Positions 3,074 through 22,106 of a DNA stretch of 36,055 nucleotides are shown here, piece after piece; within the stretch, counting starts at the first letter, position 1; each line of letters starts with the position of its first letter. The notes under the pieces are model-generated. The model was not told the DNA's origin. It searched no databases and was given only the letters and a program-made list of their open reading frames with translations. The stretch is from a virus, in IMG/VR virus record IMGVR_UViG_3300045988_129084; one strand, 5' to 3'. A program made the translations under genes and the position numbers.

Positions 3074-3889
3074 ATGAGAATCGGAATGGAAGCAGTTATG
3101 CAGGCCGGAACGACTGGGAAGGCGTTCAATTTTTGGCTGGTGGACACTATCGCCCCCGACCAAAAAACGCGGAACTGGTACACCGGCGAGGAAACCACCG
3201 TGGAGAGCAAGACAAGCCAGCGCTACTTCGTCGATAACCTGAACGGCGCGGCGGCTGGCGACACCGTGAACCTGTATATCAACAGTGTGGGCGGAAGCGT
3301 AAAGGAAGCGCTGGGAATTTACAGCACCCTGCGCCGCTGCCCCGCCACTGTAGTGGCATACATTGACGGATACGCCGCTTCTGCGGCTTCTGTCATTGCT
3401 ATGGCGGCGGACAAAATTATCATGCCGCGCAATACTTGCATGATGGTACACAACGCCGCCGGTCCGGCCTACGGCAACGCAACACAGCTGCGCAAGGCTG
3501 CCGACGACATGGAAGTTATCAACCTGGCGGCAATTCAATCCTACATGAACAAGGCGGGCGACAAGCTGCCCGCCGACAAACTGGCAGAACTGCTGAACGC
3601 GGAAACCTGGCTGACTGCCGAAGACTGCATAGAGTACGGCCTGGCCGACGAATACGCCGACACGGACGCAGACCTTGACGAAGCAATTCGGCAATACCGC
3701 GCCGCGATGGAAGCCGCCCCGCAAATGCAGCTTGAAAAGGCAATGCCCAGTTTCATGCCTGCCGCAAAAGCCCCCGAAACCGCCCCGCCGCCCCCGGCGG
3801 AACCTTCCCACGCTTCCCCGGCGGAAGCCGCCGAAGGGAAAAAGACCAGCGCAATTTTTATGCTGCTGGAATCCATGACAAAGGAGTAA
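3074..3889 (+). CDS. Prohead (head maturation) serine protease, ClpP/S14-like
   Basis: 271 aa with RBS AAAGGAGG. ClpP-like core INSVGGSV...YIDGYAASAASVIAMAADKIIMPRNTCMMVHNA. The Pro/Ala-rich C-terminal tail may be scaffold-like. Confidence 0.88.
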   Translation: MRIGMEAVMQAGTTGKAFNFWLVDTIAPDQKTRNWYTGEETTVESKTSQRYFVDNLNGAAAGDTVNLYINSVGGSVKEALGIYSTLRRCPATVVAYIDGYAASAASVIAMAADKIIMPRNTCMMVHNAAGPAYGNATQLRKAADDMEVINLAAIQSYMNKAGDKLPADKLAELLNAETWLTAEDCIEYGLADEYADTDADLDEAIRQYRAAMEAAPQMQLEKAMPSFMPAAKAPETAPPPPAEPSHASPAEAAEGKKTSAIFMLLESMTKE

Positions 3890-6480: not shown

Positions 6481-7046
6481 AAGAGATCGACAACAGCGAA
6501 AATATTATCCTGGGCAGCGGCGACCTGTATATCGTCGAGTTTAACGACGCTGTGCCCGAAGACGCAACCATCGAGATCGACGACAACCGCGCGGGCAACA
6601 TCAAGGGCGGCGCAACGCTGGAATACACAGCGACCAGCCAGACCGTGAAGGACGACAAGGGCCGCGTTTCTAAAACCATCGTCACCGAGGAAGACGTGAA
6701 ACTCAAAACCGGCCTTATCACCTGGTCCCCCGCCTACCTGCAGGCGCTTATCGAAACCGCCCGCGTGACCGAGACCGGGAAAAGCGGCCAGCACAAGCAC
6801 CGCACTTACAAGCTGGGCGGCCTTGCCAACAAGACCGGCAAGCGCTACCTGTACCGCTTCGTTCACACCCGCGACGACGGGCGCAAGCTGCGCATTACCG
6901 TAACGGGCAAGAACAGCGGCACCATCAGCATTGCCTTCCAGAATGACAACCCCACGCAGGTGGACGCAGAGGTGACCGCGCAGAGCCTGGACAGCGACGG
7001 CACCCTGGTTATCATGGACGACGAACTGACCGAGAACGCAACCTAA
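6477..7046 (+). CDS. Major tail protein
   Basis: 189 aa from ATG 6477 (ATGA overlap; track start 6366 trimmed). Position is before the chaperone pair and the tape measure. Confidence 0.75.
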   Translation: MKEIDNSENIILGSGDLYIVEFNDAVPEDATIEIDDNRAGNIKGGATLEYTATSQTVKDDKGRVSKTIVTEEDVKLKTGLITWSPAYLQALIETARVTETGKSGQHKHRTYKLGGLANKTGKRYLYRFVHTRDDGRKLRITVTGKNSGTISIAFQNDNPTQVDAEVTAQSLDSDGTLVIMDDELTENAT

Positions 7047-7402: not shown

Positions 7403-7642
7403 GTGCCGTTTGCGCTGTGCAGCGCAAGCGAAAAGCTGGTTTCCGAATACGCGGGCATTCCTCTGCCTGCCGTCTATGACCTGGACATTATTACATTCTG
7501 GGCGCTTCTGCGCGATGGTGTGATATACAACCGGGCGCAGACGGAAACGGGCAGGAAATGGCTGCGCAATGCGTGGAGAATCACACAGACGGAGCCGGAG
7601 ACCGAAAAACTGAAAGCAAAATACGGAGAAAGGGGGAATTGA
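7403..7642 (+). CDS. Tail assembly chaperone, T-like part (possibly made as a -1 frameshift fusion with 7065..7367)
   Basis: It is in the -1 frame relative to 7065..7367. That frame is open from 7343, overlapping the upstream gene's last 22 nt. It also has its own GTG 7403 with RBS GGAGAGGGGG. Confidence 0.6.
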
Positions 7643-7644
7643 CG

Positions 7645-9945
7645 ATGGCGGCCAAAACATTAAAAGGCATTACCGTTGAAATCAACGGCAAAACAACCGG
7701 CCTTGCAAACGCCTTAAAGGACGTTACAAAGACTTCCACGGCCCTGTCCAGCAACTTGAAGGAAATCAACAAGGCGCTGAAACTGGATCCCGGAAACACC
7801 GAACTGCTGAACGAAAAGCAGAAAATTCTTTCCGAAAGCGTAGCCGCCGCGCGCAAGGAATTGGAAACCCTGGAAGGCGTACAGAAACAGGTTTCGGACC
7901 AGTACGCCAACGGCGACATTGACCGGGGCGCGTGGCTGGAATATCAAAACAAACTGCAAAAAGCCAAGCAGCACCTTGAAGACCTGGAAAAAGCGCAGAA
8001 AGACTTCGGCACCGCCGCCGCCCAGGCCATAAAGGAAGCCGGCGCGAAAATCGAGGAATACGGCGGCAAGGTAGAGGGAGTCGGGAAAAAGCTCATGCCC
8101 GTTTCCGGCGTGGCCGCAGCGACGGGCACAGCGCTTACAAAAATGGCCTGGGACTTTGAAGACGGGATGGCCAAAGTTTCGACCATTGCAGACACCACGG
8201 AAGTGCCTATTTCCGACCTTGAAAAGCAAATCAAGCAGTTGTCCGACAGCACCGGCGTGGAAGCCGGAGAAATTGCGGAGAACGTATACAACGCAATCAG
8301 CGCCGGGCAAAAGACCGGCGACGCTGTAAACTTTGTATCGAAGGCAACAGACCTTGCGAGGGCCGGCTTTGCAGAGACAGGCGACGCGCTGGACGTTCTG
8401 TCCACGATTATGAACGCCTACGGGCTGGAAGCATCGGAAGTCGACAAGGTTTCTAACGACCTTATCATGACGCAAAACCTGGGCAAAACCACGGTTGCCG
8501 AACTTTCCAGCAGCATGGGGAAGGTTATCCCGACAGCGAAAAGCACAGGCGTAAACCTGGACGAATTGTGCGGAGCCTATGCGGTAATGACTTCTAACGG
8601 CGTTGCTACCGCTGAAACCACAACATACTTGAACAGTATGCTTAACGAATTGGGGAAGCAAGGCTCTACTGCGGCGAATGCGTTTGCGGCAGGAACGGAA
8701 CACATCAAAGAAGGCGGCCTGACAATGGCCGAAGCGATGGAACAGGGCTGGTCTTTGTTCGACGTTCTAAGCGTTCTTGATGAACAGGCCGCCGCAAGCG
8801 GCACAAGCATAAACAATATGTTTTCCAGTGCCGAAGCCGGAAAAGCCGCGAACATTTTGTGGGACAATGCCGAAAAATTCAACGGCGCAGTTGAAGAAAT
8901 TCAAGGGAGCACAACGGCCACAAGCGACGCGCTGGGAAACCTGGAAACCAGCGGCCACAAAACCGAGGTTGCAATAAACCAAATCAAAAACGCGGGGCTT
9001 GAATTCGGGCAAACAATCAGCGCAATGCTGGCCCCCGCCCTTCAAAAGCTGGCCGAATATATCCGAAACGCGAAGGAAAAGCTGGACGGAATGGACGACG
9101 GCCAAAAGCAAGCCATTGTTACCATTGGCCTGATTGTGGCTGCAATCGGTCCGGCCCTTGTGATTATCGGCAAGGTAATTACAGCCGTGGGAACCATTAC
9201 CACGGGCGTGGGCAGCCTTGTGGGCTTTGTGGGCGGCACGGTTGTGCCACTTATTACAGGCACCGTAATGCCCGCGCTGTCGGGCCTGTGGGCGCTTATG
9301 CTGGCAAATCCTATATCTATTGTTATTGCAGCTATTGCGGCCATTGTGGCCGCGTTTGTGCTGCTGTGGAACAAGTGCGAAGGTTTCCGCAATTTTTGGA
9401 TTAACCTTTTTTCTTCTGTCAAAAGCACGGTTGTGGACGCGAAAAACAACGTTCTTTCCACCTTCGACGGAATCAAAAACGGAATTTCGAGCCGCATTGA
9501 GGGCGCGAAAAACAGCGTACACAATGCCATTGAAAACATTAAAGGCTTTTTCAATTTTAGCTGGTCCTTGCCGCACCTGCAACTTCCGCACCCGTATATT
9601 TCCGGGCGCTTTTCCCTAAACCCGCCCAGTGTGCCCAGCTTCGGTATTAACTGGTACAAAGAAGGCGGCATTTTGTCCGGCGCGCAGATTTTCGGGCAGA
9701 TGGGGGGCAATCTTTTGGGCGGTGGCGAAGCGGGCCAGGAAGCCGTTCTGCCGTTGTCCGATTTTTACAGCCATCTGGACGGGATTCTGTCGCGGTACAT
9801 GAACAACACGGCCAGCGGCCTGGTTATCCAGCTGAACATTGAACGCTTCGAGAACGGCGGATCCGAAGACATTAAGGAAATCGCCCGCCGCGTGGGCATT
9901 GAGGTGCGCCGCGAAGTGGAAAAGAAACGGGGGGCTTTTGAGTGA
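7645..9945 (+). CDS. Tail tape measure protein
   Basis: 766 aa from ATG 7645 (track start 7558 trimmed). Coiled-coil N-terminus, a TP901-type TMP core, and a hydrophobic Gly/Ala/Ile/Val segment. It is the longest gene after the chaperones. Confidence 0.9.
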
Positions 9946-13600: not shown

Positions 13601-14212
13601 TACAAAAATCCGAAGGTTGAACTGGGCGGAATCGCAACCGCCTGGACCCCTGCCCCGGAAGACACCACCCTGGCCGCCACTGCCCCGGCGCTTACACAGC
13701 AGGAAGTTTTTAACCGGCTGACAAACAACGGGCAGCTGCAAGGGCTGTACATGAGTGACGGCAAGCTGTACATCAATGCGCAGTATATCGCTGCCGGAAG
13801 AATTGCCAGCGTTGACGGGAAAAGCTATTTTGACCTTAACACAGGAAATGCCGTGCTGCGCGGATCCTTTTCCACCCTTGAACGGACGAATTCGACGGGA
13901 ACATACCGCGTTTTCTTCGATTCGGGAAATATCGCTTGCCAAAAGAAGAACGGCGATAACTGGGACAGCATAGGCTTCCTGTCCTGGAACTACGGCGTAA
14001 GCCCCCCGGAAACCTGGATAAAAGCGTCGCGCGTTGACGTACTAAATTCTTTGGACACCCCTGCGGTATGGCTGAGTGGCACAGGATACGGAAAGGCTTT
14101 GTATGCAGAAGACGGGCAGCGAAAGTTGTACGTTGACAACATAAACGGCCGCAGCGTGCAGTGGTATTGGGATTCTGCAATTTCTAAATGGGTCCTTGGC
14201 GCAAACGCTTAA
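10652..14212 (+). CDS. Tail-associated lysin/tip protein (Tal; prophage-endopeptidase-tail N-domain) with a long C-terminal extension
   Basis: ~1186 aa. GTG 10652 has RBS GAGGTGG and a GTGA overlap with the Dit stop; GTG 10640 is an alternative start. N-terminus ...LYPENETNFESNGLGPLSDALACTIEENRNGAFELSMEYP is typical of siphovirus Tal. Confidence 0.85.
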   Translation: MKPRLYPENETNFESNGLGPLSDALACTIEENRNGAFELSMEYPVTGVLFDELKHGSIIFAPPNDSSEPQPFRVYGKSTPLSGVVTVRAKHISYQLSHIPVSPFTAGSCAAALQGLKTNAVEPCPFDFWTDKETVATFTVKEPASARSLLGGVAGSVLDVYGGEYEFNRYTVKLHKARGTDSGVVIAYGKNLVDIDQEESIENTITGVYPYYKDTDGNVLELPEKVVSSASAHNFPYPRTVPLDCSQEWQETPSVEQLRAYAAAYVTREGIGVPAVSLKVSFVPLWQTEEYKAIAPAERLNLCDIATVRFEKLGVNARAKVVQTVYDVLAGRYESITLGEASTNLADTIVAQDKAINAKADTSDLEAAAANASAWITGNKGGYVVLRRNADGQPYELLIMDKPTIEEATKVWRFNKSGLGYSSTGYNGTYGLAMTQDGQIVADYITTGTLSANLLRAGVLQDKTGKVFKLDLDAGTLDANFTSLQVSGKTPEQIAAEQAKEAAAAAEKAAKEAAAADLKEYQAAVEKTVQDLQGQIDGNITTWFYPYAPTAENKPASDWTTETEREAHAGDLFYNTDQASGKAYRWAIVGDVWQWLLLEDTDVAKALANAKTAQDTADGKRRTFISTPVPPYDVGDLWAQGKDGALLACIKKKTGSQLYSADDWTDAANYTKAAEAMLKDYADTVNEQLEGLGRQIDGKTETWFYPYDPTAKNEPASGWKTEEDRKAHEGDLFYNTDPASGKAYRWAKDGDAWAWALLQDADVSAALAAAKQAKDTADGKRRTFISTPVPPYDVGDLWTQGDAGELLVCTTAKASGAAFAAGDWASAADYTAQAAEAGRNLISNSAYIGVTSTYTGFDFTGNQVKITLTDGNSARNVTRRLTEYGIQSLRNRKITVSYDYKITEAITYAENYSGTPGALGRLEITFADGTKQHISAPRNDFKALGTAAMDDFARVTATATVLDREVTAAVFKVFFQGATGAIIYKNPKVELGGIATAWTPAPEDTTLAATAPALTQQEVFNRLTNNGQLQGLYMSDGKLYINAQYIAAGRIASVDGKSYFDLNTGNAVLRGSFSTLERTNSTGTYRVFFDSGNIACQKKNGDNWDSIGFLSWNYGVSPPETWIKASRVDVLNSLDTPAVWLSGTGYGKALYAEDGQRKLYVDNINGRSVQWYWDSAISKWVLGANA
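12203..13162 (+). repeat. In-frame tandem duplication inside Tal: two 480-nt (160-aa) units, 12203..12682 and 12683..13162
   Basis: Register offset is exactly 480 nt (cctggttttacccct at 12276 and 12756). The stretch gacaccgccgacggcaagcgccgcacctt-atttccacgcccgtgcccccgtatgacgtgggcgacctgtgg occurs at 12493 and 12973 with one mismatch. Confidence 0.9.
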
Positions 14213-14229
14213 AAGGGGGTGAGAAAAAA

Positions 14230-14937
14230 ATGGAAGAACAGCAGATCCTTCAAAAAATCAACCTTGATTTTGCGCGGGCCGGAATCCCGCCGCGCGTCTT
14301 TGCAAAGCAGGGCGACAATAATATGCGCGTTGTGGCCGTGTCACTGTATAACGACGGGAAAGCCTATAAGGTCCCCGGCGGCTATGCCGTGAACGTGAGC
14401 GCCAAAAAGCCGGACGGCAAAAGCGTGTACAACCCCGCCACGGAAGTGGCCGGGAACGTCGCCTATATCACCCTTACCCAGCAAATGCTTGCCGTGCGCG
14501 GCATTGTCTCCGCCGAAATTGAAGTCGTGCGCGGGGCTGACACGCTGAAAACGGAAAAGTGGCAAATCAACGTTGAAGAATGCGCGAACCCGGAAAACCA
14601 GGTTGAAAGCACTGACGAATACAAGACCATACAGCAGCTTCTTGCCGAAACCGAAGCGGCCAAGACTGCGGCGGCTGAGTCTGCAAGCGCTGCGGCCAAG
14701 AGTGCGCAGGAAGCCAAAGACGCGGCGGCACAGGCGGCAGCGGACGCGAAAAAGGTTATTGACGAAGGCGTAAACGACAAACTGCAACAAATGCATAAAA
14801 TTCAAACCGACGTAACCGCCAAAGCCGACAAGGTAAGCACCGACGCGGCCAAAGTGGAAGGGTACGCCAAAGCTGCGCAATACCTTATCGGCTACAACAA
14901 AAAGAATATTTTAACCGTTTTCCTCTATGAGGAATAA
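14230..14937 (+). CDS. BppU-like baseplate upper protein (N-terminal BppU-type domain plus Ala-rich coiled coil)
   Basis: 235 aa from ATG 14230 (track start 14188 trimmed). N-terminus ...INLDFARAGIPPRVFAKQGDNNMRVVAVSLYNDGKAYKVP... resembles BppU_N. The A/E/K-rich helical stretch is typical of fibre stalks. Confidence 0.65.
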   Translation: MEEQQILQKINLDFARAGIPPRVFAKQGDNNMRVVAVSLYNDGKAYKVPGGYAVNVSAKKPDGKSVYNPATEVAGNVAYITLTQQMLAVRGIVSAEIEVVRGADTLKTEKWQINVEECANPENQVESTDEYKTIQQLLAETEAAKTAAAESASAAAKSAQEAKDAAAQAAADAKKVIDEGVNDKLQQMHKIQTDVTAKADKVSTDAAKVEGYAKAAQYLIGYNKKNILTVFLYEE

Positions 14938-14953
14938 CAGAAAGGACAGAACT

Positions 14954-16645
14954 ATGGGACTTACTGAATACGGGCACATTGCAACCGAGGAAACCCAGCT
15001 GCGCGTTGCCGACCTGCTGCAAGCAATCGCAGCGGGAAGCGCTGGCCCGGAATACACCGACGCGACCTTCAAGGCCCTGCTGGACGACACGAACACAACG
15101 GAGATTTTTTCCGCCTGGTGGCCGCTGTCCGCAGCATCGAACGACAGCAAATACAAGCGCCTGCTGCGCTTCTTTACCATGCTGCAAACCGACAAAACCT
15201 ACACCGTGAAATTTCCCAGCCCTGCCGTGTCCACAAACCCGGCGGGCACCCCGGCGGACGATCTGGCAGGAAAGAGCGCGGCAGCCTTGGCAACCGACAG
15301 CACAAACCCGGAAGACTGGGCGGCGGAAGACCGCATGACCTGGTATATTCGCGCCAACGCTGTGAGCCTGGCAGACGGAACTATGGACGTTCTTGCCATT
15401 GAGGGCGAAGAAGAATTTGACATCACCGGCACGCTGGCCCCTGTCTACACCTTCGCCCCTGCTCTGCTGCGCCGCGTTATCGACGACGGCAGCTACCTGT
15501 CGAAAAGCTGGCGCAGCACCTTGGCCGATGGCTTCACGCCCTACGCCGAAAACGTGGCACCGAATGGCAAGCGCCGCGCAATGACCTGGCACGCTACCTT
15601 CCCCGGCGGCTTGAACGCAAAGGGCGCACTTACCAGCGGCGCGGGCCTGCCTGTGGCGAACTTCAACAGCGCGGCCACGGGTCTGGCCCTGGCCCGCAAG
15701 CAAACTGCTTACGATTCTGTGTGGGGCGACTGTGACAGCCTGTATATGCTGGATATGTGGCAGCTGCGCCATTTCAACCTTGAAAATAGCCGCATTTTGG
15801 AAGGCTGCACCAGCTACAACCTGCAATATAAGGTTGCAGCCGCCGAAACCGGCGTGAAGCGTGTGCTGCTGACTGCTTCCCAGGCTTCGGGCTTCATTGT
15901 CGGCAGCACCGTTTCTGTGGGCGACAAGGGCAGCAACAGCAGCGTAGACCGTTACAATACATGGATGCGTGACATTGCCGACAGGGTAAAAGTTAAGAGC
16001 ATTGAAACCGTTACCGTCGGCGGCACCGACTATTCGGCGGTAAATTTGGACGTTGCGGACAGCTTCGACGTGCCCGAGACTGCCTATATCAGCTCTATGC
16101 CCTGGCACAGCGGCGCAACGGAAGCCCTGCCCGGCCATAGCGACGGCGCACCCGGCAGCCTGACGAACGGCAAATACCCGTGCCGTTGGGCTGGCGTTGA
16201 AATGCTGAACGGTGCCTACGTTATCGGCCTTGACCCGCTGTGGAACGTCACAACCGTGGACGGCGGCGTGACCTATACCGCTATGGCCTGCCGCGATTCG
16301 GAGAAAGAAGCCAGCAGCGTGACGGCCAACCATGTGAAAGTCGCAGAAAAGACCTTTACCAGCGTGAACGCCTGGAACTACGAACTTTCGATGCAGAACG
16401 ACAGCACCGAAAGCCTTCTGCCTGACAAGACCGGCGGCGGCGACACCGTGGGCATGAAGTCCGCGTTTTCTGTCAATGGCTCTGCGGGGGTCCGTTGCCC
16501 GTGGCGTTATGGCTCTTTGAGCCATGCTGGCGCTGCTGGCGCTGCCTGCGCGGCTGGCAACTTTTCCCCGGCGAGTTCGGACTGGCATGGCGTTCCCCGG
16601 CTTAAAGGATCGGGCAAAAAGCGGGGTGAATGGGCGGGCTTTTGA
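14954..16645 (+). CDS. DGR target protein: putative receptor-binding tail fibre/tip protein with a C-terminal variable region (C-type-lectin-fold type expected)
   Basis: 563 aa from ATG 14954 (RBS AAAGGA; track start 14927 trimmed). It is the last structural gene after Tal and the BppU-like gene. The VR occupies codons near the C-terminus (...SAFSVNGSAGVRCPWRYGSLSHAGAAGAACAAGNFSPASSDWHGVPR...). Confidence 0.85.
   Translation: MGLTEYGHIATEETQLRVADLLQAIAAGSAGPEYTDATFKALLDDTNTTEIFSAWWPLSAASNDSKYKRLLRFFTMLQTDKTYTVKFPSPAVSTNPAGTPADDLAGKSAAALATDSTNPEDWAAEDRMTWYIRANAVSLADGTMDVLAIEGEEEFDITGTLAPVYTFAPALLRRVIDDGSYLSKSWRSTLADGFTPYAENVAPNGKRRAMTWHATFPGGLNAKGALTSGAGLPVANFNSAATGLALARKQTAYDSVWGDCDSLYMLDMWQLRHFNLENSRILEGCTSYNLQYKVAAAETGVKRVLLTASQASGFIVGSTVSVGDKGSNSSVDRYNTWMRDIADRVKVKSIETVTVGGTDYSAVNLDVADSFDVPETAYISSMPWHSGATEALPGHSDGAPGSLTNGKYPCRWAGVEMLNGAYVIGLDPLWNVTTVDGGVTYTAMACRDSEKEASSVTANHVKVAEKTFTSVNAWNYELSMQNDSTESLLPDKTGGGDTVGMKSAFSVNGSAGVRCPWRYGSLSHAGAAGAACAAGNFSPASSDWHGVPRLKGSGKKRGEWAGF
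16459..16600 (+). repeat. DGR variable region (VR)
   Basis: Aligns without gaps to 16743..16884 (offset 284). There are 14 mismatches, 13 of them opposite TR adenines. Homology ends abruptly after ggcgttccccgg. Confidence 0.92.
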
Positions 16646-16653
16646 CCGCCCAG

Positions 16654-16675
16654 AGGGGCAGCAGGCCCCTTTTTG
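16654..16675 (+). terminator. Rho-independent terminator after the DGR target gene
   Basis: AGGGGC-agcag-GCCCCT stem followed by TTTTT. Confidence 0.6.
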
Positions 16676-16687
16676 AATAGAAAACAA

Positions 16688-16725
16688 ACCACCGGCCTTC
16701 CACGAACGGAAGGGCGGTGGTTTTT
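16688..16725 (+). terminator. Strong rho-independent terminator between VR and TR
   Basis: ACCACCGGCCTTCC-acgaac-GGAAGGGCGGTGGT gives a 13 bp stem with one G.G mismatch, followed by TTTTT. Confidence 0.75.
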
Positions 16726-16742
16726 GGGTAATACGGCGCTGG

Positions 16743-16884
16743 GTCCGCGTTTTATGTCAATGGCTCTGCGGGGGTCCGTTGCCCGTGGCGTTATGGCAAT
16801 TTGAACAATGCTGGCATTGCTGGCGCTGCCTGCGCGAATGGCAACAATTCCCCGGCGAATTCGAACTGGAATGGCGTTCCCCGG
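16743..16884 (+). repeat. DGR template repeat (TR)
   Basis: Non-coding copy of the VR. It contains 23 adenines, all at codon positions 1 or 2 when read in the VR frame. Twenty of them sit in ten AAY codons. Confidence 0.92.
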
Positions 16885-17095
16885 TCTACTGAAATTTTAA
16901 GGCACAGCCCAAAGCTGTGCCGCATTGCGTTGTGTTATCCGTGCCGAAAGCTAAAATCATGTGAGACCGACACCGCGCCCGGTTTCGGGCGGGGCTATGC
17001 GCTGCGGGCGCATGGCGGGGCAAGTAGTAGAACACCGAGACCCTGCACGAAGGGCCACGGCAACCGAAAGCCCTTGCACATCAGTAAGTATTTTT
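16885..17095 (+). ncRNA. DGR spacer region (structured RNA between TR and RT, part of the TR-RNA)
   Basis: No credible ORF. There are several GC-rich hairpins: 16901-16921 (GGCACAGC/GCTGTGCC), 16976-16991 (CGCCCG/CGGGCG) and 16994-17016 (9 bp with one G.U). Confidence 0.55.
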
Positions 17096-18376
17096 ATGAA
17101 ACAAAGATATAAAGAACTATCCCATAACCTGTGTTTGCGCGCGGTTTTGGAGTGCTTCGAGAAGAAATGGCACCGCCAAGATTTTGTCGCGGTTGCCGAA
17201 AAGTACGGGGGTGTTTCCAATGTGGAGATAAGGCGCGACGAAGCGCAAAGTGCAGTTGTCAAAAAGCTGGAAGCTGCGGACGGAATAGCGCTGGAACTTG
17301 AGCAGCGAATTCTTGACCTTGAAGACGGAGACCCGGAAGCGCTGGACCTTGACCCGGTAACGGAACGGCCCCGCATTGACGGCATAAGCATGAAATGCCG
17401 AAATGTTGCAAATTGTTGTGTATTTCATCAATGCTTCGGCCATCTTGCTTTCCTGGGCCTGGAACCGCTTCTGCGAGCCAGAATTCTGCCCTACCAACAC
17501 GCAAGCATACCGCACCGAGGGCAAAGCGGGTGCAGGCGGCAGGTGCAGCGCTTCCTTCGCCGTAAGGCGCTGGGAATCAAGTACGCCCGCAAGCTGGACA
17601 TTCGCCACGCCTACGAGAACACCAAAGCGGGCGTAATCATGGGAATTTTGAAAAAAGAAATTCCCGCCGCAAAGTGGCTGCTGCTGTTGGTGGAAGCCCT
17701 GCTGAATATGTCGCCGCGCGGTTGCCTTATTATAGGCGGCTACTTGGACGCATGGCTGTTTAACCTGGTTATGTCCTACGTTTTGCGGTATATGCTGTCG
17801 CTTGAAAAGGTGCGCAGGGGCACGCGGCAACGCCTTGTTGTGGCACTGGTGGCCTATGCGGACGACGTTGCCATAATGGGCCGAAGGCTGGCAGACCTGC
17901 GCAGCGCGGCAAGGACGGCAGCAAAATGGACGCTGAAAACCTTCGGCCTGACATTCAAACCGGGCGGCGACGAAGTGGCCTTTTTGAGCATCGAAGAAGA
18001 ACACCGCCGCAGGCACCTGACGCGGCCAGCGGCGCGCGGCTGCCCTGGGCTTGATATTGTGGGCTTCGTTATCCGCCGAACCTATACAACCGTGCGCCGG
18101 GCCATTTTCCGGCTGGCGCGGCGGCAATACCTGCGGGCCGGGCGCGAAGTTGACAAAAGCGGCACGGTGCCGCTTTTTCGCGCGTACAAGCTGGCGAGTT
18201 ACTACGGATATTTTACGCAGACGAATTCCCGGAAATGCAGCACAACGCTGCGGACCGAGAAAATAAAACCGCTTGCCTGCCAAGTAATCGGGTGGGCAAC
18301 ACGACAGAAAGAGAGGATACACAATGAAAAATGCAAGCATTATGCTGGACCACCAGCCGCCTGCCGTTGTCTTTGA
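17096..18376 (+). CDS. DGR reverse transcriptase (divergent)
   Basis: 426 aa from ATG 17096 (track start 16961 trimmed; no obvious SD). RT motifs seen: ...KLDIRHAYEN (motif A), IIGGYLDAWLFNLVMSYV (motif B region), LVAYADDVAIMG (YADD, motif C), LKTFGLTFKP, LDIVGFVI. Confidence 0.88.
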   Translation: MKQRYKELSHNLCLRAVLECFEKKWHRQDFVAVAEKYGGVSNVEIRRDEAQSAVVKKLEAADGIALELEQRILDLEDGDPEALDLDPVTERPRIDGISMKCRNVANCCVFHQCFGHLAFLGLEPLLRARILPYQHASIPHRGQSGCRRQVQRFLRRKALGIKYARKLDIRHAYENTKAGVIMGILKKEIPAAKWLLLLVEALLNMSPRGCLIIGGYLDAWLFNLVMSYVLRYMLSLEKVRRGTRQRLVVALVAYADDVAIMGRRLADLRSAARTAAKWTLKTFGLTFKPGGDEVAFLSIEEEHRRRHLTRPAARGCPGLDIVGFVIRRTYTTVRRAIFRLARRQYLRAGREVDKSGTVPLFRAYKLASYYGYFTQTNSRKCSTTLRTEKIKPLACQVIGWATRQKERIHNEKCKHYAGPPAACRCL

Positions 18377-18677
18377 GCGCCTGCCGGACGGCGACGCCGT
18401 TGTCCGGCTGTACGACAACATCAAGGACGCGGCAGACGTTGCACAGCCCGGCGAGACTGACCCGGAACAGGAACCGGGCAGCGCGTACCTGGCCGACGAA
18501 GTTATGTTTATGCTTCCCGCCACCCGCGCCGCAGAGGAAACCCAGGAAAGCATTGCAGCGGATTTTTCCGGCTGGTGGAAGTACGGCGAAGCATGGGAAG
18601 GCCAGGAGAAAGCCCCGACTGTCGAGGAGCGCCTGGCCGCAATGGAAGATTTTATGGTCGCAATCATGGAGGGCTAA
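18324..18677 (+). CDS. Hypothetical acidic protein (XkdW-position protein)
   Basis: 117 aa, overlaps the RT 3' end by 53 nt. It precedes the XkdX-like gene, as in PBSX-type tail/lysis junctions. A start at ATG 18342 is also possible. Confidence 0.55.
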   Translation: MKNASIMLDHQPPAVVFERLPDGDAVVRLYDNIKDAADVAQPGETDPEQEPGSAYLADEVMFMLPATRAAEETQESIAADFSGWWKYGEAWEGQEKAPTVEERLAAMEDFMVAIMEG

Positions 18678-18682
18678 CACAC

Positions 18683-18844
18683 ATGAGCAAATACTATACC
18701 ACCGCGCGGCTGCTGTATCGGCTGCACAAAATCACCGCCGACCAGGTGTGGGCGTACACCGAAAGCGACCCGCCCAAAATCACCGAAGACGAAGCGCTGG
18801 CAATCTGCGGCCCGCGCGCCAAAGATGAAACCGCCGGAAGCTGA
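18683..18844 (+). CDS. XkdX-family small phage protein
   Basis: 53 aa from ATG 18683 (RBS GGAGGG; track start 18575 trimmed). MSKYYTTARLLYRLHKITADQVWAYTE...ITEDEALAICG resembles the XkdX family. Confidence 0.7.
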   Translation: MSKYYTTARLLYRLHKITADQVWAYTESDPPKITEDEALAICGPRAKDETAGS

Positions 18845-19004
18845 AAGCTGGCTGCATGAAACGGCGGCCCTGCTGATTGACGCAATGGACCTTGCAGTAA
18901 AGCAGCAGCGGCGGCTTGATCTTCACGCGGACAGCAAGACAAAAGACGAATACACGGCCCTGCTGGCGCGTTATGAGCGCTTCACGCAGGCCGCCGACAA
19001 ATAG
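18825..19004 (+). CDS. Hypothetical small protein (59 aa, below the ORF-track cutoff)
   Basis: Hand translation of ATG 18825...TAG 19002-19004 gives MKPPEAESWLHETAALLIDAMDLAVKQQRRLDLHADSKTKDEYTALLARYERFTQAADK. It fills the gap between the XkdX-like gene and the lysin gene. Confidence 0.5.
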   Translation: MKPPEAESWLHETAALLIDAMDLAVKQQRRLDLHADSKTKDEYTALLARYERFTQAADK

Positions 19005-19017
19005 GAAGGTGGAACAA

Positions 19018-19815
19018 ATGAAAATTTACGGCATCGACGTTTCGCACCACCAGGGCGCTATTGACTGGGCCAAGACCGCTTCGGAGCTGCGCCGCGTGAA
19101 CGGCGGAACGTCGCCCGGCTTTGCAATTCTTCGCGTGGGATATTCTGCGCGGCACGGCAAAGGCGGCTTGTACATGGACGGCCAATTCCTTAACAACCTG
19201 GCCGCTTGCGAGAAGTACGGCGTCCCCGTGGGCGTTTACTTCTACTGTTACGATACCAGCCCCGCCGCCGCAAGAATCACCGCCCAGCAGGTTGTAAAAA
19301 TGCTGTCGGGCCACAAATTCGCGTACCCCATTTACTACGACGTGGAGTACGAAAAATATAACTTGAACTGCGGCAAGGCGCAGAACACGGCCATTATTAA
19401 GGCTGCGCTGGAAACCCTGGAAGCGGGCGGCTATTATGCCGCCGTGTACTGTTCCCGCGACTTCTTCATCAACCAAACCAATCTGCCGGGCCTTGCCAAC
19501 TTCGACAAGTGGGAAGCTGCTTACACCAAAACCGACACTGCCACGGTGCAGAATGGCTTGTGGCAGTATTCCAGCAAGAACGCGCTGGGAATTGCAGGCT
19601 TCGGCAATAGCCTGGACTGCGACGTCTGCTACCGCGACTATCCCGCCATTATGGAGAAGAACGGACTGAACGGCTACACCAAAACCGAGCAGGCCGCCCA
19701 GCCGAAAGCAACCGAATACATGGTGACGGCTGGCCCCATGAGCGCGGGCGACAAAAACACCATTAAGGCGCAGGCCGAAGCCCTGGGCCTTCCCGTAACC
19801 GTAAAGGAGTGTTAA
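19018..19815 (+). CDS. Endolysin, glycoside hydrolase family 25 muramidase
   Basis: 265 aa from ATG 19018 (RBS AGGAAGGTGG; track start 18916 trimmed). N-terminus MKIYGIDVSHHQGAIDWAK is the GH25 signature. Confidence 0.88.
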   Translation: MKIYGIDVSHHQGAIDWAKTASELRRVNGGTSPGFAILRVGYSARHGKGGLYMDGQFLNNLAACEKYGVPVGVYFYCYDTSPAAARITAQQVVKMLSGHKFAYPIYYDVEYEKYNLNCGKAQNTAIIKAALETLEAGGYYAAVYCSRDFFINQTNLPGLANFDKWEAAYTKTDTATVQNGLWQYSSKNALGIAGFGNSLDCDVCYRDYPAIMEKNGLNGYTKTEQAAQPKATEYMVTAGPMSAGDKNTIKAQAEALGLPVTVKEC

Positions 19816-19818
19816 ACA

Positions 19819-20451
19819 ATGGATATGCTTTTCTCTAACTACTTGCACACGCTGACCGGCAACCTTTTTGTGCGCCTGGTGCTTTGGTGCGTTGTGCTGG
19901 ACACCGCCCTGGGCTGCCTGCGCGCCGTCAAATATCGGAAGTGGAATTCCAGCGTGGGCATTGACGGCGGCATTCGTAAGGTTGCCATGGTCCTGTCCGT
20001 GCTGTTTCTTGCCCTTGTGGACGATATGGTGGGCGTGGACGTGCTGGCCTGGGCAAACGCCGATGCAAGGGCGGTGCTTACGTCAATGGGCATTAAAAGC
20101 CTGGGCCTTGCAGAATTCTTCTGCGTTGTGTATGTACTCTATGAAGCTACCAGCATTATGAAGAATATGCTGCTTTGTGGCCTTCCCTTGCCCGCTGGCC
20201 TGCGCGAAAAGGTGGCCAAATTTCTGGACACAATGACCGACGAAACAGCAATCAATATGCAGGCGGAAATTTCGGGCACAAACAAAGGGCACACCGTAAC
20301 CGGGCACCTGGACACGGCACAGCTTGAAACCATGAGCCTGGAAGCCTTGCACAAACTGGCCGACGGCCTGGAAGTCGAATACACCGAAGACACGCCCCTC
20401 AAACAGTTGGCGGAAAAAATTGCCGCCGTTGAGGTAACAACCGAGATTTAA
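19819..20451 (+). CDS. Holin (phage_holin_4/TIGR01593-like) with a long soluble C-terminal extension
   Basis: 210 aa with RBS AAAGGAG. Several hydrophobic helices lie in the first ~140 aa (LVLWCVVLDTALGCLRAVKYRKWNSSVGIDGGIRKVAMVLSVLFLALV). It is adjacent to the lysin. Confidence 0.8.
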   Translation: MDMLFSNYLHTLTGNLFVRLVLWCVVLDTALGCLRAVKYRKWNSSVGIDGGIRKVAMVLSVLFLALVDDMVGVDVLAWANADARAVLTSMGIKSLGLAEFFCVVYVLYEATSIMKNMLLCGLPLPAGLREKVAKFLDTMTDETAINMQAEISGTNKGHTVTGHLDTAQLETMSLEALHKLADGLEVEYTEDTPLKQLAEKIAAVEVTTEI

Positions 20452-20528: not shown

Positions 20529-22106
20529 CTACCAGCGGGAACCCCTGGCGACGCAAATTCCAAACGTACCACAAAGGAAAAAGACCAAAGCAGCAGGGTT
20601 TGTATTTGCGGTATTTGGTGCCCCTAACGTGTCCAAATACGAACCCGGCGGGACTTCCGAAGGCGTGGCGGCCTGGGCGGCTTCATAAGGAACAACGGCG
20701 GCCCCGGCACTGTCCACATTAAAAATAATCTTCAGATAATCGTCATACACAAAGACGGAATGAACAAGCGCCCCGAACACCTGGCGGCGGAAGTCTGGAT
20801 CCGTCCTATCACCCCGGCGGAACCCGTCAAGCCAGCAGGCCACGGCTTCGGCCTTGACGACAAGCGCGGCCTGCACCTTCGCGCGGTCTATCTGCTGGCG
20901 CAGGGCCGTGCGGTCCGCTTCGGCTTCTTCCAGTAATTCCTTCGTGGTTTCTGTTATAATTCCCTGTGCAATGGCATTGCCTATATTTTTTAGTCGGCGC
21001 TGCACTTCTTCCATCTGGGCGTTTAAGCTGGCGAGAAGTGCGGCGCTGTCGCTGTTTTCGGCGCACCGTCTTTCCACTTCGGTGGAAATATAGGCTATAT
21101 TTTCATCGGTGAGAATATCAAGCGCAGACCGCAGCACGGCTTCCTCTATCAAATCAAGGCGCACGTTCTTCTTTTTGCAGGTTTTCGCCCGGCGATTATT
21201 GCAAATGTAGTAATAATGCCGCGCCCCCGTGTGGCTGGTGCCTGCCGTGCCCGTCATGGGCGCACCGCACAGGCCGCAGAACAGCTTCCCGCTTAACAGG
21301 TACGGCACTTCGGCCTTGTATGCGCCGGGCCGGTGCCTGTTCGCGGAAAGCCGCCGCTGCACGGTAAAAAATAATTCATCTTCAATAATACGCGGGCAGC
21401 CGCCTTCTATTCGCACTTCCCCGCCGTAGCTGTACACGCCTATATATTTTTCGTTGCGCAAAATGGAATTGAAGCTGCTGCGGGTGTAAAGCGTGCCGTT
21501 TGTTGTGCGGTGGCCTTCTTCGTTCAGCTGGGCGGCAAGCTGGCCCATGGCCTTGCCGCTGGCGTACCATTCAAAAATCCGGCGCACCAATTCAGCCCCC
21601 ACGGGGTCTATTTGCCAGCGCTTGTTCGGGCCTGCCCGATAGCCAAGCGGTGCGCGCCCGACGATCTGGCAATGCTGGGCGGCCTTATTCATGCCCCGGC
21701 TGACATCTTCGGACAGCTTTGCGCTGAAATATTCGGCAACGGTTTCAATCATGCCTTGCGTAATTATGCCGGCACTGCCTTCCGGTATGTATTCGGTAAC
21801 GCTGATTAAATGCACCCCGGCGGCTTCCAGCTGCTTGCGATACAGGGCGCTTTCGGCACGGTTGCGGAAGAAGCGGTCATACCGCCATACAAGAACGCAA
21901 TCAACCACGCCCGTGGCCGCGTCGCGCATGAGCCGCCGGAAGTCGGCGCGGTTTTCCGTCTTGCCGCTGCGCGCCCGGTCTGCGTACTGGCCGACTACGG
22001 TTATATTGTGCTTGTCGGCGTATTCCTGGCAAATATCCCGCTGCCCTTCTATGCTAAGCTCTTGCTGCTTATGGCTGGAAAATCGGCAGTAAATAAAAGC
22101 CCGCAT
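20529..22106 (-). CDS. int: Large serine recombinase (integrase)
   Basis: 525 aa. N-terminus MRAFIYCRFSSHKQQELSIEGQ (resolvase catalytic Ser domain), a recombinase domain, a Cys-containing zinc-ribbon region (CGLCGAPM...YYICNNRRAKTCKKK) and a coiled coil. Confidence 0.92.
   Translation of the reverse strand: MRAFIYCRFSSHKQQELSIEGQRDICQEYADKHNITVVGQYADRARSGKTENRADFRRLMRDAATGVVDCVLVWRYDRFFRNRAESALYRKQLEAAGVHLISVTEYIPEGSAGIITQGMIETVAEYFSAKLSEDVSRGMNKAAQHCQIVGRAPLGYRAGPNKRWQIDPVGAELVRRIFEWYASGKAMGQLAAQLNEEGHRTTNGTLYTRSSFNSILRNEKYIGVYSYGGEVRIEGGCPRIIEDELFFTVQRRLSANRHRPGAYKAEVPYLLSGKLFCGLCGAPMTGTAGTSHTGARHYYYICNNRRAKTCKKKNVRLDLIEEAVLRSALDILTDENIAYISTEVERRCAENSDSAALLASLNAQMEEVQRRLKNIGNAIAQGIITETTKELLEEAEADRTALRQQIDRAKVQAALVVKAEAVACWLDGFRRGDRTDPDFRRQVFGALVHSVFVYDDYLKIIFNVDSAGAAVVPYEAAQAATPSEVPPGSYLDTLGAPNTANTNPAALVFFLCGTFGICVARGSRW

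Follow-up and report, generated by a model that had tools for sequence, protein, structure and literature searches.

The window analyzed here, the whole 36,055-nucleotide (nt) stretch of IMG/VR record IMGVR_UViG_3300045988_129084, is, judged from its gene content, a complete temperate siphovirus-type phage genome of 36 kb, and the phage is a gut phage whose host group is Clostridia. Between its tail and lysis genes lies a diversity-generating retroelement (DGR) that comprises a target gene ending in a variable repeat (VR), a template repeat (TR), a spacer, a reverse transcriptase (RT) gene, and a small acidic open reading frame (ORF) (Table 1). A first-pass annotation, made from the sequence, had proposed a divergent DGR lineage without the accessory protein Avd, and this proposal held up, as did each factual statement of that annotation: Avd homologues are missing from the window and from ~160 related loci, the RT clade as a whole has lost the SQ residues of the canonical motif 4 signature, and diversification is active. 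Because the motif 4 variant and the gene order recur in ~150 independent loci, these features of the DGR are not due to chance.

Table 1. Features of the DGR locus, followed by those of the surrounding phage genome (positions in the window; aa, amino acids; pI, isoelectric point)
Feature	Position	Strand	Basis or remark
DGR target gene, 572-aa tail-fiber/receptor-binding type protein	14927-16645	+	ORF; phrog_17147, E=5e-127; VR at 3′ end
VR	16459-16600	+	Aligned to TR
Three G+C-rich hairpins between VR and TR	16631-16722	+	RNA fold
TR, 23 adenines	16743-16884	+	Aligned to VR
TR-to-RT spacer, conserved noncoding RNA, 211 nt	16885-17095	+	Alignment of 19 diverse spacers
DGR-type RT, 426 aa	17096-18376	+	Profile, fold, and family alignment
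RT fingers K100/R102	17393-17407
RT catalytic YADD	17855-17869
Small acidic ORF, 117 aa, pI 4.05	18324-18677	+	Overlaps RT 3′ end by 53 nt
XkdX-like small ORF, 53 aa	18683-18844	+	Pattern as in ORFs after the acidic ORF in relatives; FP_Epona gp61 ("XkdX family protein")
Small and large terminase, portal, ClpP-type protease, and capsid genes			First in gene order of the window
Tape measure	7558-9945
Tail protein, 1190 aa	10640-14212
BppU_N protein	14188-14937		Directly before DGR target gene
GH25 lysin	18916-19815
Holin	19819-20451
Serine recombinase	20529-22106	-
Repressor-type helix-turn-helix genes, replication genes, HNH gene			After serine recombinase

The gap-free alignment of VR and TR shows 15 differences, 14 of which are at TR adenines and 1 of which is a T>C change. 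Eleven contigs whose RT is ≥98% identical to that of the window carry a nearly invariant TR together with 11 different VRs, and 131 of their 132 TR-VR mismatches fall at TR adenines, with a flat substitution spectrum (A>G 46, A>T 43, A>C 42) and each of the 23 TR adenines (23/23) substituted in at least one VR. A lineage with a 64%-identical RT (L005 to L008) pairs one identical TR with four different VRs, and in 58 loci of the family adenines account for 660 of 688 mismatches, with ~4% at non-A bases. These data show that the DGR of the window clade is diversifying in natural populations and that it does so adenine specifically. The last 12 nt of the VR (GGCGTTCCCCGG, 16589 to 16600) contain no A and are the same in the TR, with divergence setting in afterwards, an arrangement that resembles an initiation-of-mutagenic-homing boundary.

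We also noted that the TR of one near-identical phage (L020, IMGVR_UViG_3300045988_055331; TR at ~6648 to 6790 of the locus) has four A>N changes, at TR positions 56, 57, 62, and 74, and that these are the same bases as in its own VR. This could represent VR-to-TR gene conversion, which would erode the template adenines, or an assembly chimera of the two repeats.

The RT that accompanies these repeats departs from the canonical DGR signature in the manner the first-pass annotation described. Motif 4 reads LIIGGYLDAWLFN at 17726 to 17764 and lacks SQ, and the finger region has CVFHQ at 17417 to 17431. Across 85 loci, motif 4 takes the form L[IL]IG[GS]Y[LIVS][DES]AW[LM]FN, and SQ occurs in 0 of the 85. 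Comparison with the related Avd-less RTs of FP_Epona (PLGFYISQWLAN) and of Arawn, a Butyrivibrio phage (PLGNYTSQWFAN), fixes the register of this motif: they retain SQ and agree with the window clade at the G, Y, W, L, and N positions, so that the change can be read as I-G kept and SQ replaced by D/E-A, with D-A in the window RT. Among 23 aligned RTs (42 to 69% identity), K100, R102, Q112, D168, I213, G214, Y216, W220, L221, F222, N223, and D256-D257 are invariant. Alignment of hidden Markov models (HMMs) to the BPP-1 RT (bRT; PDB 8ub7), taken together with the published residue assignments (PMC7826257), places bRT Arg74 at R102 and Ile181 at I213. Both Arg74 and Ile181, the residue with which the motif opens, promote misincorporation at adenines in BPP-1, while the substitution Q187P left adenine mutagenesis unaltered (PMC7826257); Q187 contacts the base of the incoming nucleotide in the cryo-electron microscopy structure (bioRxiv 10.1101/2023.10.23.563531). 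Given that the equivalents of Ile181 and Arg74 are invariant in the window clade, it is not surprising that adenine mutagenesis has been retained.

Profile and structure searches place this protein among DGR RTs. It matches the RT family phrog_1423 (E=8e-41), its sole NCBIfam match is a weak one to group_II_RT_mat (E=4e-6), and its score against Pfam RVT_1 (PF00078; 18.9 bits, E=1.3e-3) lies below the gathering cutoff of 29.6, which some relatives pass. The sole PDB sequence match of the RT family profile is bRT 8ub7 (E=3.5e-11), and an AlphaFold2 (AF2) model of the window RT (mean predicted local distance difference test score [pLDDT] 91) has 8ub7_A as its top fold match, with a target-normalized template-modeling score (TM) of 0.80 and E=5e-13, ahead of group II (GsI-IIC RT and others), G2L4, DRT9, and retron RTs. 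By both PDB sequence and fold searches, the window RT resembles known DGR RTs more closely than it does RTs of other classes. It belongs to a distinct subclade of DGR RTs in which [I/L/V]GxxxSQ became IGGY(L)(D/E)AW, and it is a conserved variant, not a decayed gene.

The contrary reading, that the RT is degenerate or not of the DGR type and that the TR/VR pair is a relic, could draw on the subthreshold RVT_1 score and the missing SQ, but we regard it as practically untenable. In the family alignment, the catalytic residues D168 and Y(A/M)DD are conserved and intact, the high-confidence AF2 model resembles bRT, and VR diversification is abundant, ongoing, and adenine specific, such that the population data refute a relic.

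The RT starts at the ATG at 17096 and not at the GTG at 16961 that a mechanical call would choose, because all 22 aligned relatives begin with MKQRY. The lack of a Shine-Dalgarno sequence ahead of this start, also remarked on in the first pass, is true of the window lineage; several sister lineages have GGAGG 6 to 12 nt upstream of theirs. RT translation may be kept deliberately low in the window lineage, or it may be coupled to RNA structure. A conserved TCAGTAAG motif in this lineage ends 10 nt ahead of the RT ATG. In a separate, SQ-type RT of the Arawn group (L123, MT835666.1, 4788 to 6083), there appear to be a replaced motif 2/3 region and a ~60-aa helical insertion ahead of motif 4; an ORF of the acidic family still follows it.

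RTs of this kind are widespread. Among 5.8 billion proteins searched, 249 relatives were identified, the 99%-identity cluster of the RT comprises 2,493 member sequences, and 375 stretches in IMG/VR encode RT relatives. The relatives of the RT are borne by prophages of Faecalibacterium, Subdoligranulum, and other Oscillospiraceae, of Lachnospiraceae (Fusicatenibacter, Coprococcus), and of Butyricicoccus and Lawsonibacter, with further relatives in Clostridia metagenome-assembled genomes (MAGs) from the rumen or deer gut.

Three independent tests for Avd were all negative. A Pfam-A scan covered 190 six-frame ORFs of 65 to 330 aa, with models that included PF22296, 23S_rRNA_IVP, and HRDC; PF22296 and PF05635 are the Pfam families that mark an avd gene, and PF22296 is the one precomputed for nearly all listed Avd homologues. 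Neither Avd nor HRDC was detected in the window ORFs at E<0.016 on the plus strand or E<0.05 on the minus strand, where only ordinary phage families appeared, and no MutS-like match was present among the families listed (on the plus strand, those below E 0.016). A set of 104 full-length homologues of the Avds of BPP-1 and FP_Lagaffe served to build an Avd HMM, which was run with every filter disabled on 20,768 stop-to-stop fragments (≥45 aa) of the window and ~160 related loci (1.75 Mb). Two control Avds were recovered at E=1.6e-61 and 5.5e-44, the window gave no match at E≤10, and nothing beyond the controls scored below E=0.3 in the window and the ~160 loci. Precomputed Pfam assignments for the neighbor genes of relatives in long contigs likewise included no Avd match. 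The six-frame profile searches for Avd and HRDC, which the first-pass annotation had put forward as a check, found neither within the size ranges given, in agreement with that annotation's reading that the window has no avd gene and no HRDC-type ORF.

A fused Avd in the N-terminal ~110 aa of the RT, which the same annotation had named as a refuting finding, was not found either. Profile-profile alignment (hhalign) of RT residues 1 to 110 and 318 to 426 against the Avd alignment gave probabilities of ≤0.9%, and in the AF2 model the N-terminal region consists of four helices (residues 10 to 76) and a beta-hairpin (89 to 106), which together form the N-terminal extension and the fingers of a bRT-like fold.

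Alternatively, the host chromosome or a coresident DGR prophage might provide Avd, or a different accessory factor, in trans. The window holds a phage genome and no host genome, and Faecalibacterium genomes often contain several DGR prophages, some of which, such as Lagaffe and Mushu, bear Avd (PMC5883640). Nevertheless, the same Avd-less architecture is found in prophages of at least 38 species-level genomes (Oscillospiraceae, Lachnospiraceae, and others) and in virion-derived contigs, no Avd was detected within 5 to 7 kb in ~160 related loci, a profile search of avd-less genomes found no remote avd (Wu et al., PMC5758913), and the Avd and RT of BPP-1 form a specific complex (PMC6182149). We therefore view supply in trans as improbable.

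The sequence between the TR and the RT (16885 to 17095) is noncoding and structured throughout, as had been stated in the first pass. The motifs GCTAAAATC (~16951 to 16962), AGTAGTA (17023 to 17030), and AACCGAAA (17061 to 17069) are invariant in the 19 aligned spacers, and the structured core (16995 to 17074) comprises 25 pairs in 5 helices. RNAalifold predicted only 10 pairs from the full, gappy alignment; a subalignment gave the 25-pair model that was tested. In this model 82.7% of alignment cells are paired, compared with 67% in shuffles, none of which (0 of 500) attains the observed value; compensatory cells number 83 versus 32.5 in shuffles, and the covariation score is 0.467 versus ≤0.183 in a control with the partners slid. 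The single-sequence fold signal is modest (z = -2.0), and the spacer has no Rfam family. The corresponding RNA of BPP-1 wraps around bRT and extends over Avd (bioRxiv 10.1101/2023.10.23.563531), and the spacer of the window clade would be a candidate site for priming in cis.

Upstream of the TR, the 97-nt gap from the target stop codon (16645) given in the first-pass annotation is accurate, with TR homology beginning at 16743. Hairpin 1 (16631 to 16652) spans the target stop codon and is followed by hairpin 2 (16653 to 16671) and hairpin 3 (16686 to 16722), each with a T-run after it. The RNA fold of 16600 to 16745 has a free energy of -64.4 kcal/mol (z = -3.9), which 0 of 200 shuffles equal. 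We interpret the hairpins as a putative terminator or homing hairpin; they were not among the calls of a simple terminator scan, and a promoter scan found no sigma-70-like promoter ahead of the TR. With hairpins carrying T-runs and no such promoter, the TR-spacer-RT transcript may arise by read-through or from a noncanonical promoter.

The acidic ORF that overlaps the end of the RT gene deserves more attention than it had received. The first-pass annotation was right that it is acidic and unlike Avd (hhalign of its family against Avd gives a probability of 0.1%), but wrong to dismiss it quickly, in that it belongs to a family linked to the DGR cassette. An assignment to XkdW (PF09636) is not supported, as the ORF has no Pfam match other than a spurious one at E=0.046 and no PDB sequence or fold match to support it, leaving only a resemblance in position. 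Its function could be that of an accessory factor or that of a chaperone for the diversified fiber.

As an accessory factor, the protein would replace Avd or act like the acidic CH1 protein of avd-less Bacteroides DGRs, binding or regulating the RT. In 145 of 152 loci a family HMM places a member at the 3′ end of the RT gene, where it overlaps the RT stop codon by 4 to 77 nt, and the loci that seem to be exceptions mostly have a frameshifted RT or a contig end. The family also follows SQ-keeping RTs that are only 23 to 29% identical to that of the window (FP_Epona gp60, Arawn, MT835666, MT835477, MT835469, and MT835485), and the pair persists where the flanking genes have changed, in L099/L103, in L106 (a 176-kb phage), and in L164, where no XkdX follows. 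In a tblastn search of 50,697 phage genomes the family occurred in RT-bearing loci only, phage Lagaffe, which has Avd, lacks such an ORF downstream of its RT, and CH1 (pI 4.7), which is found with avd-less DGRs only, provides a precedent (PMC5758913). Against this, a pI of ~4 makes nucleic-acid binding of the kind performed by Avd unlikely, and the AF2 model (pLDDT 76) is an alpha/beta fold of 4 strands and ~4 helices instead of a helical bundle. Structural matches are uninformative: the family profile had 0 matches to PDB sequences at E≤10, the fold had none in the PDB with E<0.2 (alpha-crystallin and SSB matches have E>0.2 and TM ~0.2), and BFVD returned uncharacterized gut siphovirus proteins only. 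Family members range from 87 to 156 aa, and their alignment contains no conserved stretch of 7 to 10 columns.

Two related loci from rumen Ruminococcaceae/Clostridiales MAGs (L157, 4120 to 4574, and L139, 4105 to 4574) are particularly informative, with the order target, acidic ORF, XkdX-like ORF, TR, RT, and lysin. The acidic ORF there stands beside the fiber gene and XkdX rather than beside the RT, yet the VRs are still adenine diversified, with 18 and 13 adenine-only mismatches, respectively. This order rules out obligate translational coupling of the acidic ORF to the RT, indicates an association of the ORF with the cassette and target that need not extend to the RT, and suggests the TR-spacer-RT segment as a mobile unit. 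Since the ORF also occupies the slot in which small proteins such as XkdW follow tail-fiber genes, a chaperone of the target is equally consistent with its position. Fusions of the RT and the acidic ORF were seen twice independently (L045, 6959 to 8566, and protein P0037, 520 aa), and we rejected them as Rosetta-stone evidence: both are best explained by indels, with one extra A in a homopolymeric A-run ~80 nt before the RT stop in L045, probably a sequencing or assembly indel, and an indel-type junction in the other. Weighing these points, we find an accessory role possible but are inclined to doubt it.

Alternatively, the acidic ORF may be no more than a gene of the tail module, encoding a fiber chaperone or assembly factor, with the DGR running on RT and RNA alone in the manner of the accessory-less Architecture A. 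In most loci the ORF lies between the fiber gene and the XkdX or lysis genes, in L157 and L139 it directly follows the target, and homologues of the target and of the acidic ORF co-occur. On the other hand, the collections searched contained no case in which it accompanies an RT-free fiber gene, it almost always overlaps the RT stop codon, and it is kept with the RT in L164 and L106. We consider this explanation quite plausible, while leaning slightly against it.

In L106 (MT835469.1), an RNase H-like ORF of 169 aa ("...AFTDGAYSQNKNKAGYGVV...", 3111 to 3620) lies between a collagen-repeat target and a distantly related DGR RT, with the acidic ORF next. It could be an additional accessory gene of that lineage.

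The other genes of the phage are listed in Table 1. Residues 440 to 559 of the target protein have a weaker match to a "tail protein" PHROG. The translated 1190-aa tail protein shows two long internal repeats, nearly identical to each other, of the pattern "...TWFYPY.PTA.N.PAS.W.TE..R.AH.GDLFYNTD.ASGKAYRWA...TADGKRRTFISTPVPPYDVGDLW.QG...", and its counterpart in the relative L001 has a Prophage_tail Pfam match. The XkdX-like ORF had no PHROG match, and a tblastn search with it found nothing. A megablast search of the 50,697 phage genomes returned no match for 14900 to 18700, so that none of these phages is close at the DNA level, and a related-locus search with the BppU-like neighbor returned the same phage lineage only and no DGR-free sister phage.

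Taken together, we conclude that the element in the window is likely an active, Avd-less DGR of a temperate Clostridia phage. We hypothesize that a transcript containing the TR and the ~210-nt structured spacer would be bound by the 426-aa RT, which would copy the TR into complementary DNA (cDNA) with misincorporation opposite adenines, and that this cDNA would replace the VR at the 3′ end of the tail-fiber gene and thereby alter receptor specificity. The scaffold role of Avd would most likely be covered by ~100 extra residues of the RT, by the longer conserved spacer RNA, or by both, and the small cassette-linked acidic protein may contribute as well.

Several points weigh against this interpretation. 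Avd independence is deduced here from the absence of homologues, and a nonhomologous Avd analogue or a host-encoded factor may be at work; the RT was compared with Avd at the profile-profile level. A few non-adenine changes also occur beside mutated adenines, including the T>C of the window (VR 16533 versus TR 16817) and the C>T, C>G, GC>TT, and G>T changes in the VRs of L005 to L008, and the mutational spectrum may differ slightly from that of BPP-1. These changes may be RT neighbor effects or ordinary drift.

DGRs without Avd have been documented (Wu et al. 2018; Cornuault et al. 2018), which makes the core of our interpretation correct but not new. What is new here is the clade-wide replacement of SQ by D/E-A in a demonstrably active RT, the covariation-supported spacer RNA, and the systematic linkage of the acidic ORF to the cassette. 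A broader proposal, in which the acidic protein is an unrecognized DGR accessory factor, RT, spacer RNA, and acidic partner define a large Avd-independent class in Clostridia phages, and the RT subclade mutagenizes adenines without SQ, strikes us as rather unlikely in its entirety.

The mechanistic model of DGRs rests almost wholly on the BPP-1 RT-Avd-RNA complex, and about a quarter of DGRs lack Avd. The window clade is abundant, compact, and visibly active and has cultured relatives (FP_Epona, Arawn), making it a practical system in which to ask what replaces Avd. Adenine mutagenesis in nature does not require the SQ half of the signature, in agreement with the BPP-1 Q187P result, and DGR finders that apply motif or Pfam thresholds may overlook such RTs. 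A two- or three-part DGR free of Avd could also serve directed-evolution tools. The element does not overturn the current understanding of DGRs, and we consider it of moderate interest.

The closest parallels are found in FP_Epona (gp58 to gp61) and in Butyrivibrio phages Arawn and Idris, which share the order of target, ~400 nt of noncoding TR plus spacer, RT, overlapping acidic ORF, XkdX-like ORF, and lysis genes and are likewise without Avd. The RTs of these phages, however, are only ~25% identical to that of the window and keep the canonical signature (GIPLGFYISQWLAN, GLPLGNYTSQWFAN), where the window clade has D/E-A. Among Faecalibacterium phages, Avd was reported only in Mushu and Lagaffe and is absent from others such as Epona, for which another small protein was suggested (Cornuault et al. 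2018, PMC5883640).

BPP-1 (mtd-avd-TR-brt) resembles the window element in its adenine-specific TR-to-VR transfer into the C terminus of a receptor-binding protein, in the structured spacer between TR and RT, and in the Ile181 and Arg74 equivalents kept by the window RT, and its RT is the nearest solved structure to that of the window in sequence and fold. The two differ in several respects. BPP-1 requires Avd, a basic helical-bundle protein that forms pentamers, and its avd gene, located between mtd and the TR, has no counterpart in the window. The RT of BPP-1 has 328 aa compared with 426 aa in the window, its spacer has 144 nt compared with 211 nt (~1.5-fold), and SQ is replaced in the window RT.

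In a survey of 372 DGRs, avd accompanied only 74% and was missing from 26%, and the accessory-less Architecture A made up 29% (Wu et al. 2018, PMC5758913). The avd-less state was lineage specific in that survey, with "Lineage 3" altogether lacking avd (Wu et al. 2018, PMC5758913). The window element appears to share with Architecture A and Lineage 3 (PMC5758913) a TR-RT core without avd, HRDC, or, among the families listed, MSL, and its conserved acidic ORF may or may not qualify as an accessory gene. The same survey described CH1 as an acidic accessory protein confined to avd-less DGRs (Wu et al. 2018, PMC5758913), and in being a small acidic protein (pI 4.7) that accompanies some avd-less DGRs it recalls the acidic ORF of the window; compared by description only, CH1 proteins have 160 to 169 aa and occur with short RTs in the Bacteroides lineage 3a, whereas the ORF family has 87 to 156 aa and occurs in Clostridia phages. 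Finally, group II intron RTs provide the next-best fold matches of the window RT and its weak NCBIfam match, but the window RT lacks the intron RNA, the maturase or endonuclease context, and the QGxxxSP motif and has instead a TR/VR pair.

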